From a virus (lineage: Duplodnaviria > Heunggongvirae > Uroviricota > Caudoviricetes), in IMG/VR virus record IMGVR_UViG_2740892234_000005: a stretch of 4,902 bases of DNA. One strand, written 5' to 3'. Under the pieces are notes generated by a model, which had not been told where the DNA came from, ran no database searches, and saw only the letters and a program-made list of their open reading frames with translations. Position 1 is the stretch's first letter. The number at the start of each line of letters is the position of its first letter. Made by a program: the position numbers and the translations under genes. Below are positions 1,581-4,902 of the stretch, piece after piece.

Positions 1581-1606
1581 AAAACCCGCCGCTGAGCGGG
1601 TTTTTC
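1581..1606 (+). terminator. Rho-independent terminator (tR'-like) ending a short promoter-proximal transcript
   Basis: Stem CCCGC (1585-1589) pairs with GCGGG (1596-1600) around loop CGCTGA; it is extendable by AAAA/TTTT and followed by T-run 1601-1605. It lies about 45-70 nt downstream of the candidate promoter. Confidence 0.75.
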
Positions 1607-1788
1607 TGTACCCGGAATTCTGTGGCTATCCAGAAAGCTCATGGAAAGAGGAGAAAGGCAATAATTTATAACAAAATCTTAAAGATCGCCTTGTATACTA
1701 TTAGTTTTGTAAATATTGTGTATTTTGAGTATTGCAGGATAACCCTGTGACGAAGTTAGTGTAACAACACTTTTGCTCTACGAGTTTC

Positions 1789-1817
1789 GCCAGCCTCCCC
1801 CAGTGGCTGGCTTTTTT
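1789..1817 (+). terminator. Rho-independent terminator in the non-coding region downstream of tR'
   Basis: 7-bp stem GCCAGCC (1789-1795) pairs with GGCTGGC (1805-1811) around a 9-nt loop, followed by TTTTTT (1812-1817). No ORF of meaningful size lies upstream in 1607-1788. Confidence 0.6.
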
Positions 1818-1836
1818 ATGTCCGTAGCGTCAAAGC

Positions 1837-1846: not shown

Positions 1847-1860
1847 TGGAAGACAAAACA

Positions 1861-2724
1861 TTGCTGCCGTTTTTCAGTAACGCACGGGTGATTCGTGCTG
1901 CTGGTGGTGCTGGTGCATTGTCTGACTGGCTGTTGCGCCATATTAAATCCTGCCAGTGGCCACACGGCGATTATCATCACAGCGAAACTGTCATTCACCG
2001 TTATGGTACCGGCGCAATGGTGTTGTGCTGGCACTGCGACAACCAGCTGCGTGACCAGACATCCGAATCACTCGAGCAACTTGCTCATCAAAACCTGTCA
2101 GCATGGATGATTGACGTCATCGGTCACGCAATAAGCGGTACGCAGGAGCGTGAATTATCTCTGGCTGAATTATCCTGGTGGGCGGTCCGCAATCAGGTGG
2201 CGGACGCGCAACCGGAAGCGGTATTACGTCGTTCGCTGGGGGGGCGTGCGGAAAAAATCCGCTCAATGTACCGTGAAAGCGACATCGTGCCGGGAGAGCA
2301 GACCGCCACCAGCATACTGAAGCAGCGCACAAAAAATATTGCGCTACCGCCTCACACCCACCAGCAACAGAACCCACCACAGGAAAAGACGGTGGTCAGC
2401 ATTGCCGTTGATCCGGAGTCTCCGGAATCCTTCATGAAACGACCTAAACGTCGCCGCTGGGTAAATGAGAAATACACACGCTGGGTAAAGACACAGCCGT
2501 GTGCGTGTTGTGGTAAGCCAGCGGACGATCCTCATCATCTGATTAGTCATGGTCAGGGCGGAATGGGAATAAAATCCCACGATATTTTCACGCTACCGCT
2601 GTGTCGGGAGCATCACAACGAGCTTCATGCGGATCCGCTGGCGTTCGAAGAAAAGCATGGTTCCCAGGTTGATTTAATTTTTCGTTTTCTTGATCACGCT
2701 TTTGCAACCGGCGTGCTCGGGTAA
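1861..2724 (+). CDS. DUF968-family protein with C-terminal HNH / Endo VII-like zinc-finger nuclease motif, copy 2 (5'-partial; true start probably in or before the gap)
   Basis: Long open frame running from the gap edge (1847) to TAA 2722-2724; the first in-window candidate start is TTG 1861. The N-terminal region has a Cys/His cluster (C-x4-H..HH..C-x2-C). The C-terminus has C-A-C-C, DDPHH, and LCREHHNELH. A Chi octamer lies inside at 1900-1907. Confidence 0.7.
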   Translation: MLPFFSNARVIRAAGGAGALSDWLLRHIKSCQWPHGDYHHSETVIHRYGTGAMVLCWHCDNQLRDQTSESLEQLAHQNLSAWMIDVIGHAISGTQERELSLAELSWWAVRNQVADAQPEAVLRRSLGGRAEKIRSMYRESDIVPGEQTATSILKQRTKNIALPPHTHQQQNPPQEKTVVSIAVDPESPESFMKRPKRRRWVNEKYTRWVKTQPCACCGKPADDPHHLISHGQGGMGIKSHDIFTLPLCREHHNELHADPLAFEEKHGSQVDLIFRFLDHAFATGVLG

Positions 2725-3108
2725 AAGAGGTTACTGATGCGTATAGAGTTTGTTTTGCCTTACCCGCCGACGGTGAACACCTACTGGCGACGTCGTGGCA
2801 GCACATATTTTGTATCAAAAGCCGGTGAGCGTTATCGCCGGGCTGTGGCGCTTATTGTTCGCCAGCAGCGGCTGAAATTAAGCCTGTCCGGACGGCTGGC
2901 AATAAAAATTATTGCAGAACCACCGGATAAGCGCCGCCGTGACCTGGACAACATTCTGAAAGCACCGCTGGATGCGCTGACGCATGCGGAAGTGCTCATT
3001 GATGACGAGCAGTTTGATGAAATCAATATTGTGCGCGGTCAGCCTGTGCCAGGTGGACGGCTGGGCGTGAAGATTTACGAAATCAGAGGTGGTAACGATG
3101 GCGCGTGA
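2265..3108 (+). repeat. Paralogous segment B (DUF968 3' part + rusA); partner is 1-833
   Basis: See segment A. Copy B carries an intact reading frame through the A6 run at 2331-2336. Confidence 0.85.
2737..3108 (+). CDS. rusA: RusA-family Holliday junction resolvase, copy 2
   Basis: RBS AAGAGG (2726-2731) precedes ATG 2737. The 123-aa product has the same PPTVNTYW / [10 protein letters not shown] / LIDDEQF / GGRLG motifs; its C-terminal tail diverges from copy 1. Confidence 0.9.
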
Positions 3109-3469
3109 TATCCAGATGGTTCTTGAGCGATGGGGGGCATGGGCAGCAAATAATCATGAAGATGTAACATGGCCCTCGATAGCTGCTGGTTTTAAAGGAT
3201 TAATCCCGACTAAAGTGAAATCACGTCCTCAGTGTTCTGATGATGACGCCATGATAATTTGTGGTTGTATGGCACGATTAAACAAGAATAATCAGTATTT
3301 GCACGATTTGTTGGTGGATTATTACGTAGGTGGAATGACATTTATGGCTCTTGCACGTAAGCATAGATGTTCTGATGGGCTTATTGGTAAAAGGCTTTAT
3401 AAAGCGGAAGGTATTATTGAAGGAATGCTTATGGCTCTGAATGTCCGGTTAGATATGGATATGCGGTAG
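3098..3469 (+). CDS. quuD: Short antitermination protein Q (DLP12 QuuD-like)
   Basis: ATG 3098 with GAGGTGG 5 nt upstream; the 5' end overlaps the rusA stop (3106-3108). The 123-aa product ([32 protein letters not shown]..) matches my recollection of the roughly 127-aa QuuD from prophage DLP12. Not verified by search. Confidence 0.7.
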
Positions 3470-3561
3470 GGATATATAGTGATGAGGGTTATGTTTTCTG
3501 TGTTTATAATTAACATGTTTATTTTTTTGATGGTCATGTATTGTGGAAGGTAGATAAAATG

Positions 3562-3590
3562 TTGCCTGGTGAATTGAAAATATTGATAAT
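3562..3590 (+). promoter_or_regulatory. Candidate sigma70 promoter for the cargo gene: -35 TTGCCT (3562-3567), 17-bp spacer, -10 GATAAT (3585-3590)
   Basis: Found in the very AT-rich 3470-3615 spacer. An alternative perfect -10 TATAAT at 3505-3510 lacks a good -35. AT-rich DNA produces such matches by chance, so this is weak. Confidence 0.3.
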
Positions 3591-3621
3591 CAATCTTCAT
3601 CATTAAATAAAAGGAGTGCTT

Positions 3622-4440
3622 ATGTGGATTGTGTTAGTACTGTCACTGTCAACTCTCAGTTGGCATAAGGTAGTGGCTTTTTCATTGTTGACGGTGTCTG
3701 TTGTCCTGGCTGTGCTTAATGATATTATTGATTGGTCGGTGTTATTTTTTGTTGCTACAATCGTTTTTTTTATTATTTTGAAGTTCAACTGGAAATATAA
3801 CGCCTGGGCTAAATCTATATATGAAGTTGGCATAGTTTTATCAGCCATAGCATTATCTTTCCATCTATGGCCAGGGTTTCACAATCCTGTAGTGCTAAAT
3901 TCTGTTACTGTTGGCCCTCAAAGTACTCCCTATACAATGTATTTTAATTTTGATAAAGCGCTGGTGCCATTTTTGTTAGTCCTGTGTACATCTTCTTTGT
4001 TTAAAAAAGAAGTAAAATCAGAAGTGTCTTTGTGGAAGTGGGGGGCTCTGTCGCTCTCTGTTCCTCTTATCCTGTTTTTGGCTGTTTTTTTTGGTGGATT
4101 AAAGCCAGAGATTCATTTTCCTGAGTGGTTGCCAGAGTTTATATTGGCTAATTTGTTTTTTGTGTCTCTGGCAGAGGAATCATTATTTAGAGGGTATATT
4201 CAATCACGGCTATCAGAAGTAACGTCTCCATTGGTTGCATTAATTGTGGCGGCTTTGTTGTTTGGTTTTTATCACTATTCAGGTGGTGCTTTACTTGTAT
4301 TATTTGCCACGTTATCTGGTGTTGTGTATGGATTGTCATGGATGTGGAGTGGGCGTTTGTGGGTTGCCACCCTTTTCCATTTTGGTTTGAATCTGTGTCA
4401 CTTGTTATTCTTTACCTATCCATTTTTAAAACATAATTGA
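3622..4440 (+). CDS. CPBP (CAAX protease / bacteriocin-processing, Abi, PF02517-like) family polytopic intramembrane metalloprotease; prophage cargo (moron) gene
   Basis: RBS AAGGAG (3611-3616) precedes ATG 3622; the track starts at GTG 3616. The 272-aa product has roughly 8-10 hydrophobic helices. The three CPBP signature motifs sit in consecutive C-terminal helices in the canonical order: EExxxR (AEESLFRGY, nt 4174-4191), FxxxH (FGFYHY, nt 4261-4275), HxxxN (HFGLN, nt 4378-4392). The gene is AT-rich with T-rich codons, unlike the flanking phage genes. Confidence 0.8.
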   Translation: MWIVLVLSLSTLSWHKVVAFSLLTVSVVLAVLNDIIDWSVLFFVATIVFFIILKFNWKYNAWAKSIYEVGIVLSAIALSFHLWPGFHNPVVLNSVTVGPQSTPYTMYFNFDKALVPFLLVLCTSSLFKKEVKSEVSLWKWGALSLSVPLILFLAVFFGGLKPEIHFPEWLPEFILANLFFVSLAEESLFRGYIQSRLSEVTSPLVALIVAALLFGFYHYSGGALLVLFATLSGVVYGLSWMWSGRLWVATLFHFGLNLCHLLFFTYPFLKHN

Positions 4441-4578
4441 TTTTTTCTATGGTTTTAAATTTATAAGACTGAAAAATAGCAGGACGTGACATTTGCATGA
4501 AAAATATGCACGGCAAAGCATTTACGTACGTAAAAAATCAGGTATGCTGTTAAGAGTGGTTATTTCGCCGCATAGCTT

Positions 4579-4604
4579 GACCCCGCCTCTGAGCGGGTTT
4601 TTTG
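4579..4604 (+). terminator. Rho-independent terminator (tR'-like, paralogous to 1581-1606)
   Basis: Stem CCCGC (4582-4586) pairs with GCGGG (4593-4597) around loop CTCTGA, followed by TTTTTT (4598-4603). It shares the core CCCGC-CKCTGA-GCGGG-TTTTT and a nearby GCAAAGTAGC word with the copy 1 terminator. Confidence 0.7.
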
Positions 4605-4681
4605 TGCCCGCAAAGTAGCGCAGTGCGTTAAATGTGCTGGTAGTTATTAATACAGGTCTTTCAGCTTGCTGGCTTTTTCGG

Positions 4682-4709
4682 CAAGAGTTATTGGTGTGTC
4701 ACGTTAACC
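4682..4709 (+). repeat. 28-bp direct repeat, left copy (CAAGAGTTATTGGTGTGTCACGTTAACC)
   Basis: Identical 28-mer recurs at 4758-4785 on the other side of the N gap. Confidence 0.9.
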
Positions 4710-4744
4710 AAAAGGGAAAAAAGACATGCTAAAACAGCAGGATA

Positions 4745-4754
4745 NNNNNNNNNN
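4745..4754. other. Assembly gap (10 N), scaffold join
   Basis: Run of exactly 10 N, flanked by a 28-bp direct repeat. It truncates a gene that starts at ATG 4726 (MLKQQD..). Confidence 0.95.
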
Positions 4755-4757
4755 CGA

Positions 4758-4785
4758 CAAGAGTTATTGGTGTGTCACGTTAACC
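4758..4785 (+). repeat. 28-bp direct repeat, right copy
   Basis: Identical to 4682-4709. The downstream sequences are both purine-rich but diverge. Confidence 0.9.
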
Positions 4786-4902
4786 GGAAAAAGGAAAGTT
4801 TGAGAAACGCGATCTGGCACAGGCGGTTATTAATGCTGCCTACCTGGTGGCCTGTGCAGATGGTGAATGTGAGGCTTCCTAGAAAGCGAAGATCGAACAG
4901 GT

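Follow-up and report, generated by a model that had tools for sequence, protein, structure and literature searches.

A candidate moron cassette encoding a predicted CPBP-family intramembrane protease between Q and the late promoter PR' of lambdoid prophages

The window analysed here, a stretch of 4,902 nt from a Caudoviricetes virus record (IMG/VR IMGVR_UViG_2740892234_000005), carries a gene for a CPBP/Rce1-like intramembrane protease between the gene for the Q antiterminator and the late promoter PR'. It is highly probable that this predicted-active CPBP protease is moron cargo of the Q|PR' junction. It is also reasonably probable that positions 3470–4520 are a single-gene moron cassette occupying a polymorphic slot, which extends from the stop codon of a Q gene of the Q933W/Q21 family to the −35 hexamer of the constitutive PR'. 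The best reading is a lysogenic-conversion moron whose product is a predicted-active inner-membrane protease. The protein family is a known one, and RefSeq already names the protein as CPBP.

The Q gene (3089–3469, + strand, as are all features given below unless stated) encodes a 126 aa protein (PF06530, E=4.9e-52) of the family termed Q21/Q933W (bioRxiv 10.1101/651190), which shares 79–86% identity with Q of VT2-Sakai and of phage ev207. It is followed by a 152 nt AT-rich spacer (3470–3621, GC 0.34–0.35) that forms the left end of the cassette and that, by prediction, includes three promoter-like sites (3531–3603) and no terminator-like site. A Shine–Dalgarno sequence, AAGGAG (3611–3616), is seen 5 bp upstream of the ATG of the CPBP gene (3622–4440), which encodes a 272 aa protein (PGAP annotation, WP_000265267.1). 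The base composition of the cassette is foreign relative to its neighbours, with a GC content of 0.34–0.39 compared with 0.50–0.57 upstream, and the 3' half of Q is likewise AT-rich. An 81 aa reverse-strand ORF (3603–3848) was considered as a gene and dropped, as it is missing from the 83–84% and 62% alleles. Scans of the window with Rfam models and for tRNA genes gave no credible match in or around the cassette.

The preliminary description of this DNA, made by reading the sequence, had assigned the ORF to the CPBP/Rce1-like family on the basis of three motifs in canonical order, and the profile search bore this out. The 272 aa protein scored 70.6 bits with the PF02517 profile (E=1.4e-19), for which the curated cut-off is 22.4. 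All three motif sets (EExxxR, FxxxH and HxxxN) are complete and in the expected order, namely EESLFR (residues 185–190, with E185, E186 and R190; 4174–4191), FGFYH (residues 214–218, with F214 and H218; 4261–4275) and HFGLN (residues 253–257, with H253 and N257; 4378–4392). Across 70 homologues spanning 45–100% identity, each motif residue is either invariant or conserved to at least 90%. In the protein model the fold is a helical membrane fold of the Rce1 type, and the motifs sit on transmembrane helices. The product of the cassette is thus a polytopic protein with a CPBP/Rce1 fold and a full motif set, and we infer that it is located in the inner membrane, where it is predicted to act as a Glu/His-dependent intramembrane endopeptidase.

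No subfamily assignment was obtained. The NCBIfam models for CPBP subfamilies (the myxosortases MrtP/C/X/Z/S/J and an ABC-permease fusion) all scored far under threshold, the best reaching 46 bits where 435 were required, and a sequence search of the PDB with the family profile gave no match at E≤1. Rce1 and SpdC were found by fold comparison only. The type II CAAX prenyl endopeptidase Rce1 of M. maripaludis (4CAD) shares 16–17% identity with the CPBP protein, but the latter carries an additional segment of four helices at its N-terminus and, at residues 80–109, a conserved beta-hairpin loop, and its gene is phage-borne. Loop conservation was noted at residues 80–112 and 158–169. To our knowledge, prenylated CAAX substrates are absent from E. 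coli, and no substrate has been defined for any CPBP protease of a Gram-negative bacterium. The best structural match was SpdC/LyrA of S. aureus (6U0O, 14% identity), a non-catalytic scaffold that positions the glucosaminidase SagB. As SpdC works without catalysis, the intact motifs of the phage protein are not proof of proteolysis.

The late promoter was located by homology at 4521–4548, with a −35 hexamer TTTACG (4521–4526) that falls within the palindrome TTTACGTACGTAAA, a 16 nt spacer and a −10 hexamer TATGCT (4543–4548). The PR' transcript of Sakai has been mapped and is 258 nt long (PMC7547250), which places its start 6–7 nt past the homologous TATCAT; the corresponding start in the window would be near 4554–4555. 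Within the initial transcribed region, the −10-like element TATTTC (4561–4566) is a candidate sigma-dependent pause element, and a TAYNTY-like sequence is conserved at this position across the loci compared. A role for −10-like elements in the initial transcribed region has been described (bioRxiv 10.1101/651190). The PR' leader also includes a GC-rich hairpin followed by a T-run (4582–4603), the stem of which is retained in other loci with changes in loop and stem bases. This PR' module (4521–4603) is found directly after the Q stop codon in VT2-Sakai and EH2201 but on the 3' side of the cargo in ev207, in Stx2a_1447 and in all CPBP alleles. In the window it begins about 80 nt after the CPBP stop codon. 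As placed by this comparison, the −35 of PR' marks the point at which the cargo slot ends on its right. A location for PR' within the Q–CPBP spacer was considered and dropped, as the module follows the gene in every allele and comes right after Q when the slot is empty.

The distance between the Q stop codon and the PR' module varies with the content of the slot. It is 18–41 nt when the slot is empty (VT2-Sakai and EH2201), approximately 1081 nt with the CPBP gene, approximately 1560–1680 nt with a porin gene on the reverse strand and 810–1092 nt with genes for ORF6N proteins, with other lengths for unknown ORFs. In related phages, the slot is thus either empty or filled with cargo of another kind, of which at least five were seen, and the earlier suggestion that the gene belongs to the variable cargo and not to the phage core is upheld. 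A position next to Q had also been proposed and was found in every case, with Q just upstream (3089–3469 in the window) and the PR' module about 114 nt downstream in all 40 IMG/VR loci plus L008–L013. However, the proposal that the gene lies at the Q/late-promoter boundary in the hot spot used by stx genes was right only in its first part. Homology to VT2-Sakai, together with its 258 nt transcript, puts PR' downstream of the gene, and the CPBP gene is outside the Q-antiterminated late transcript because it is upstream of PR'. The slot is that of the lc/nmpC type rather than that of stx.

Like the CPBP gene, the stx genes are accessory and found near Q in related phages, but they lie downstream of PR' and tR', past the tRNA genes, and depend on Q antitermination. 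The stx1 gene has, in addition, a Fur-regulated promoter of its own, which may be compared with the Fur-like site described below. No deposited Stx phage carries the CPBP gene. The lc/nmpC-type porin moron of PA-2, DLP12 and ev207 is optional envelope cargo in the same slot between a Q gene of the Q933W/Q21 family and PR'. It differs in strand and product: the porin gene runs opposite to Q and specifies a beta-barrel of the outer membrane, whereas the CPBP gene is co-oriented with Q and its product is a predicted inner-membrane helical protein. The comparison sets the Q|PR' junction apart from the stx slot as a recombination site of its own, a distinction relevant to reading variation in the 'pR' region' when Shiga-toxin-producing strains are typed.

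The phage CPBP alleles are 59–100% identical and form a single clade. All are 272 codons long with no indels, and dN/dS values of 0.10–0.29 show that the protein is under purifying selection in prophages. Q and CPBP identities change in step, with Q at 100, 96, 93 and 80–83% and CPBP at 100, 96–97, 83–85 and 59–62%, respectively. The Q–CPBP spacer is kept in the 83% allele and is not kept in the 59–62% alleles. Approximately one-tenth of complete E. coli genomes (572/5426), many of them from Shiga-toxin-producing strains, carry the gene. It is known from prophages and is absent from deposited genomes of propagated phages; megablast and tblastn searches of 50,697 deposited phage genomes did not find it, the only matches being two Listeria fragments with 29% identity.

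Homologues that are 45–56% identical were found in other Enterobacterales, including Providencia, Proteus, Photorhabdus, Serratia and Dickeya, as solitary chromosomal genes. Their products match the phage protein in length and architecture and share with it all of the motifs and the loop residues specific to the subfamily. The order modF-X-gpmA was seen in 34 of the 80 species with a chromosomal orthologue. When the neighbours of the 80 orthologues were examined, the only recurrent ones were modF/modE upstream and gpmA/aroG downstream, and therefore no functional partner for the chromosomal CPBP is indicated. No Q gene was found near the chromosomal orthologues, whereas the phage alleles always follow Q. 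A sister lineage (L212) has its CPBP gene between a lambda-type Q gene and the holin gene, and candidate promoter/terminator pairs flank the gene on both sides.

A sigma-70 promoter, TTGCCT-17 nt-GATAAT, is predicted in the spacer at 3562–3590, with the counterpart TTGTCA-17-GATAAT in the 83% allele, though promoter-like hexamers are frequent in AT-rich DNA (17 hits in the window compared with 8.2±3.3 in shuffles). In a lysogen, the CPBP gene would probably be transcribed from this promoter, and we put its being active there at about an even chance. The cassette itself lacks a terminator, and the first one 3' of the gene is predicted to be the PR' leader hairpin and T-run, at which CPBP transcripts would stop. 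After induction, read-through from Q would be expected because no terminator is predicted between the two genes, and the early rightward operon would then end with CPBP.

A sequence resembling a Fur box, AATATTGATAATCAATCTT (3579–3597, no strand assigned), overlies the predicted −10 and matches the consensus at 14 of 19 positions. It is the best such site in the whole window, though 98 of 5000 spacer shuffles also reached 14, and it is treated as a lead only; Fur might possibly repress the predicted promoter. The sister lineage has Fur boxes with 17/19 and 15/19 matches in the same position as in the window, and no comparable box was found in the 59–62% alleles. In the chromosomal orthologues, the Fur-box scan gave the same result as shuffles, which means that Fur control does not extend to the family as a whole. 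The anatomy of the cassette, which lies upstream of PR' with a probable promoter of its own and possible iron control, makes the function of the gene directly testable.

With respect to function, the phage would bring about lysogenic conversion of the envelope by supplying a membrane protease for which there is a stable chromosomal gene in many other Enterobacterales. The likeliest pay-off would be that the lysogen is shielded from a membrane-inserting peptide or protein, as in immunity of the bacteriocin or microcin type, or that an incoming phage is excluded. We propose such a protective role, whether immunity or exclusion, only tentatively. A much more specific version, in which the gene is a Fur-repressed single-gene protective determinant whose product, under iron limitation, cleaves the membrane-inserting domain of a toxin or a phage ejection protein, is highly speculative. 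The same low weight is given to the associated view that the protease is made when the TonB-dependent receptors used by colicins, siderophore-microcins and several phages are derepressed. If this specific version were correct, Gram-negative bacteria would have a new form of immunity or exclusion, a catalytic one, derived from a housekeeping gene of Enterobacterales and disseminated through recombination between Q and PR'.

Of the more particular explanations, immunity of the Abi type, with motif-dependent degradation or processing of a bacteriocin, a microcin or the pore domain of a colicin, fares best but is still unlikely. The catalytic motifs are intact and conserved, the PF02517 family provides a precedent, and Fur-type control would suit toxins that use iron-regulated receptors. 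Kjos and colleagues are said to have found in 2010 that Gram-positive Abi/CPBP immunity proteins, such as PlnI and SkkI, act in a motif-dependent manner. The immunity proteins of lactic acid bacteria resemble the phage protein in having a CPBP domain and intact motifs, and in being the products of small single genes often found in mobile DNA. However, the known Abi immunity genes adjoin their cognate bacteriocin genes, whereas no bacteriocin gene was found in the 31 kb prophage context, nor any bacteriocin or export gene near the prophage CPBP gene, the chromosomal orthologues or the sister-lineage gene. The host here is also Gram-negative.

Anti-phage defence or superinfection exclusion, which the preliminary description had put forward and in which the protease would cleave an incoming phage's ejection, pilot or tape-measure protein or else trigger abortive infection, is less probable again. 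Such a role would fit a gene that prophages carry as cargo in a polymorphic slot, and the porin carried by PA-2 in this Q|PR' slot lowers expression of the receptor OmpC. If Fur control occurs, the gene would be expressed at the same time as TonB-dependent phage receptors are derepressed. Against this, a scan of the CPBP protein with PADLOC-DB 2.0.0 matched no family at E≤1, in agreement with the earlier view that this is not a textbook defence system. Porins, ORF6N regulators and unknown proteins make up the rest of the cargo seen in the slot, and a PADLOC scan of 10 of these proteins gave only weak PDC-S05 domain matches, for the ORF6N proteins. The chromosomal orthologues are in housekeeping synteny rather than in defence islands. 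Our literature search found nothing on this gene, nor on CPBP proteins in lambdoid prophages or in phage defence.

It is comparably improbable that the protein is a non-catalytic scaffold or regulator that binds and retunes a host envelope enzyme or sensor. SpdC provides one model for this and Abx1, which binds the kinase CovS, another. Unlike SpdC, the phage protein has conserved catalytic residues and no candidate partner gene linked to it, and the conservation of these residues over 45–100% identity is most easily explained by retained catalysis. The weakest explanation, a lytic-cycle accessory that is co-transcribed with Q after induction and processes a membrane protein of the host or of the phage, for instance a holin or spanin, to the benefit of phage development, would fit the co-orientation with Q and the lack of a predicted terminator between them, the parallel divergence of Q and CPBP alleles and the place of the sister-lineage gene before the holin gene, but is very doubtful given that most phages with close Q, lysis and morphogenesis genes have no CPBP gene or have unrelated cargo and that no deposited genome of a propagated phage carries it.

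Beyond PR', a conserved 66 aa ORF begins at 4726, of which only the start (4726–4744) is present in the window before it is truncated by an N10 gap. This ORF is annotated in NZ_CP027544.1 and also in Stx2 phages that have no CPBP gene, and it is part of the shared backbone, outside the CPBP cassette.

The 4902-base window is not one contiguous locus but three contigs scaffolded together, as runs of ten Ns at 1837–1846 and 4745–4754 join three pieces. Piece 1 (1–1836) and piece 2 (1847–4744) are parallel segments from two different lambdoid prophages, and DUF968, RusA and Q genes are present in both. The CPBP gene and its neighbouring Q are wholly within piece 2. The complete chromosome of E. 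coli 2013C-3264 (NZ_CP027544.1) is 100% identical to window 3089–4744, and the match falls in an apparently complete prophage with integrase, exonuclease, RacR-type repressor, replication genes, Q, lysis genes, terminase, portal and capsid. Q and the CPBP ORF are therefore genuinely adjacent. caagagttattggtgtgtcacgttaacc flanks the second gap (4682–4709 and 4758–4785), indicating that a prophage repeat interrupted the assembly. In this complete genome (L001, 16638–17964), the PR′ module leads, 3′ of piece 2, into a 66-aa ORF, a helix-turn-helix protein, tRNA-Ile/Arg/Arg, a NanS-p-type esterase and then the genes for lysis. Stx2 phages bear stx on the same backbone, but here stx is absent.

The CPBP ORF (3622–4440, + strand) starts with an ATG five nt after AAGGAG, and the PGAP coordinates are identical. 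The protein matches the PF02517 Rce1-like profile at 70.6 bits (E=1.4e-19), well above the 22.4-bit cut-off, and carries motif 1 (EESLFR, residues 185–190), motif 2 (FGFYH, 214–218) and motif 3 (HFGLN, 253–257) in the canonical order, bearing out the preliminary description of a CPBP-family protease. In an alignment of 70 homologues of 48–84% identity, E185, E186, R190, F214, H218 and H253 do not vary, and N257 reaches at least 90% conservation. The AlphaFold2 model built from the same alignment is confident (pLDDT 91.4, pTM 0.90), with about ten helices and a beta-hairpin at 90–107. Helix 170–198 holds motif 1, the end of helix 203–217 motif 2 and helix 246–263 motif 3. In every testable respect the protein is a CPBP/Rce1-like family member, and none of the curated CPBP subfamily models reached its cut-off with it. 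The PHROGs entry is phrog_13291, function unknown. The cassette is a moron encoding a known protease family, already named in RefSeq as 'CPBP family intramembrane glutamic endopeptidase'; what is added here is its exact placement relative to the late promoter PR′, the polymorphic slot between Q and PR′, the likely chromosomal origin and a lead to Fur.

Q (3089–3469; PF06530, Q21/Q933W family) shares 79–86% identity with its counterparts in VT2-Sakai and phage ev207. An approximately 85-nt module, TTTACGTACGTAAAAAATCAGGTATGCTGTTAAGAGTGGTTATTTCGCC...CCCGCC-loop-GCGGG-T6, was found 3′ of the CPBP gene in every CPBP allele examined, at 4521–4603 in the window. The module starts at the Q stop codon itself in VT2-Sakai and <20 nt after Q in the Stx2 phage EH2201 (megablast match from 38 nt past the stop), while it comes after a reverse-strand porin gene and before the holin in ev207, and after two reverse-strand genes in Stx2a_1447. 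The late transcript from PR′ in strain Sakai is 258 nt (PMC7547250) and, counted back from the matching terminator, its start in VT2-Sakai lands 6–7 nt past the TATCAT hexamer of the module. The module is therefore PR′ with the early leader (−35 at 4521–4526, −10 at 4543–4548 and start near 4554, assigned by homology), and the CPBP gene lies between Q and PR′. In contrast, the stx genes are downstream of PR′ and the late terminator tR′ and need Q, whereas the CPBP gene is outside the Q-dependent transcript. The position beside Q originally proposed thus holds, but the proposed location in the stx hot spot does not, because the PR′ module follows the gene. The PR′ −35 region (4521–4534) is a perfect 14-bp palindrome, TTTACGTACGTAAA, which in VT2-Sakai is TTTACGATCGTAAA and includes the Q stop codon; GCGGTCCGC or GCGTACGC takes its place in more diverged phages. 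The palindrome may be part of the Q-binding element.

We measured how far the PR′ module lies from the Q stop in 80 IMG/VR loci found via the Q protein, and in reference phages. Empty slots measured 18–41 nt, and those with the CPBP gene about 1081 nt. Other slots held an opposite-strand porin (PF00267; about 1560–1680 nt), ORF6N-domain proteins of 162–239 aa (810–1092 nt), unknown proteins of 109–159 aa (about 520–630 nt) or, in one case, a 3 kb multi-ORF insert. Homologous prophages therefore do carry variable cargo at this position, and the original cargo reading stands. GC content is 0.34–0.39 over 3300–4650 and 0.50–0.57 upstream. PADLOC detected no known defence protein in the other slot cargo, the ORF6N proteins giving only weak PDC-S05 domain matches. 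A conserved core phage gene is ruled out, as relatives have an empty slot or other cargo. In IMG/VR (L153 and L050), one 85% CPBP allele is separated from the PR′ module by ~1 kb of additional sequence that includes ORFs of 75 and 124 aa, indicating that stacked cargo is possible.

The exact CPBP protein was found on at least 1000 contigs, and Q with CPBP in 572 of 5426 complete E. coli genomes. CPBP alleles of 96–97%, 83–85%, 62% and 59% identity directly follow Q of 96%, 93–94%, 80% and 83% identity, respectively, and each class precedes a PR′ module. All phage alleles have 272 codons with no indels, and pairwise dN/dS is 0.10–0.29, indicating that selection keeps the gene and that its residence at the Q|PR′ junction has been long. 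In 3 of 40 IMG/VR copies (L138/L054, L146/L049 and L148/L055) the frame is shortened or disrupted, leaving an ORF of 159 aa, 239 aa or none; either pseudogenization or errors in sequencing could account for this.

The phage alleles formed one clade in a neighbour-joining tree. Its sister group, the clusters P0007 and P0008 (55–58% identical), is likewise mobile; P0007 has a lambda-type Q (PF03589) on one side and a holin on the other, while P0008, from Salmonella, follows an IS-like ORF. Sister-lineage loci with the Q-to-holin arrangement (55% identical) include L212 (4741–6268), L213 and L216. In L212, a promoter-like TTGATT-18-TATGCT and a strong terminator (4831–4856) precede the CPBP gene, which, unlike that in the window, may sit inside the late transcript. 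More distant homologues (45–56% identical) stand alone on the chromosome in Providencia, Proteus, Photorhabdus, Xenorhabdus, Serratia, Enterobacter, Dickeya and others; no Q lies near any of them, and modF-X-gpmA synteny is seen in 34 of 80 species. The wider full-length family at E<=1e-10 comprises 992 clusters (50% identity). Among the best matches labelled E. coli or Shigella, none was outside the Q-linked clade and, to our knowledge, E. coli has no chromosomal PF02517 gene. Judged from these sequences, the phage gene looks like a captured housekeeping-type membrane protease. A few Helicobacter species have homologues ~50% identical, and large clusters labelled Pseudomonas aeruginosa are 59–60% identical over ~75% of the length (L065, L077 and L124 in genome_contigs; P0079 and P0095); horizontal transfer, gene chimeras or wrongly labelled assemblies could explain these.

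No terminator-like site was predicted between Q and the CPBP ORF, the first one 3′ of the ORF being the PR′ leader hairpin (4582–4603), so joint read-through of both genes would be expected after induction. Three promoter-like sites were predicted in the 152-nt spacer, of which TTGCCT-17-GATAAT (3562–3590) is the best, with TTGTCA-17-GATAAT as its counterpart in the 83% allele. Across the window, the sequence closest to the 19-bp Fur consensus (3579–3597, 14/19) overlaps the predicted −10; 98 of 5000 spacer shuffles reached this score. The sister lineage has a near-perfect Fur box (17/19; L212 4977–4995), with 15/19 in the Salmonella allele (L217 4951–4969), about 35 nt upstream of a conserved Met-Trp start. 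No comparable signal was found in the 59–62% alleles or chromosomal orthologues. Phage-borne CPBP genes of two lineages are thus closely preceded by Fur-box-like sequences. The stx1 promoter is iron-repressed, and these sequences suggest, as a lead and not a result, that the moron promoter may be too.

The protein has a CPBP fold with intact motifs and is selectively maintained as optional cargo upstream of PR′. The lysogen would probably make it as an active endopeptidase of the inner membrane, where it may alter the envelope or the response of the cell to membrane-inserting agents. Abi-type immunity to peptide toxins has the strongest family precedent, but Abi immunity genes are defined by linkage to bacteriocin genes, which is missing here from the prophage context, the sister lineage and the chromosomal orthologues, and we rate this role as unlikely. 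Phage exclusion would be consistent with prophage cargo status, but no database or published report backs it and we rate it as distinctly improbable; PADLOC did not place the protein among catalogued defence proteins, and our literature search found no experimental or comparative paper on the gene. We give equally little weight to a scaffold role like that of SpdC/Abx1: the fold match to SpdC, the non-catalytic function of SpdC and the invariance of N88, D111, K112, E163, H165 and W169 in predicted periplasmic loops (70-homologue alignment) point that way, but the catalytic residues do not vary either, which favours catalysis. A role in the lytic cycle would fit the shared orientation and parallel divergence of the gene and Q, but the gene is missing from close relatives and such a role is very unlikely. 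For the membrane endopeptidase favoured here, the narrower proposal that it acts as an iron-controlled, catalytic determinant of immunity or exclusion is also highly speculative.

In piece 1 the gene order (DUF968, RusA, Q) is that of piece 2, but its Q belongs to the Q82 family (PF06323, 224 aa) and is unrelated to that of piece 2. A promoter-like TTGCAA-17-TATATT (1503–1531) directly follows this Q with no cargo between them, and a hairpin with a T-run lies near 1583–1605. From this first hairpin on, window 1585–1836 closely matches the PR′-to-tR′ leader of VT2-Sakai, including the terminator at about 1785–1816; mean column identity in the alignment of the leader with the region 3′ of piece-1 Q was 86% overall. 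The VT2-Sakai leader gives rise to the Hfq-binding sRNA StxS (PMC7547250), and the match points to an StxS-like sRNA gene behind a different Q family and a different promoter.
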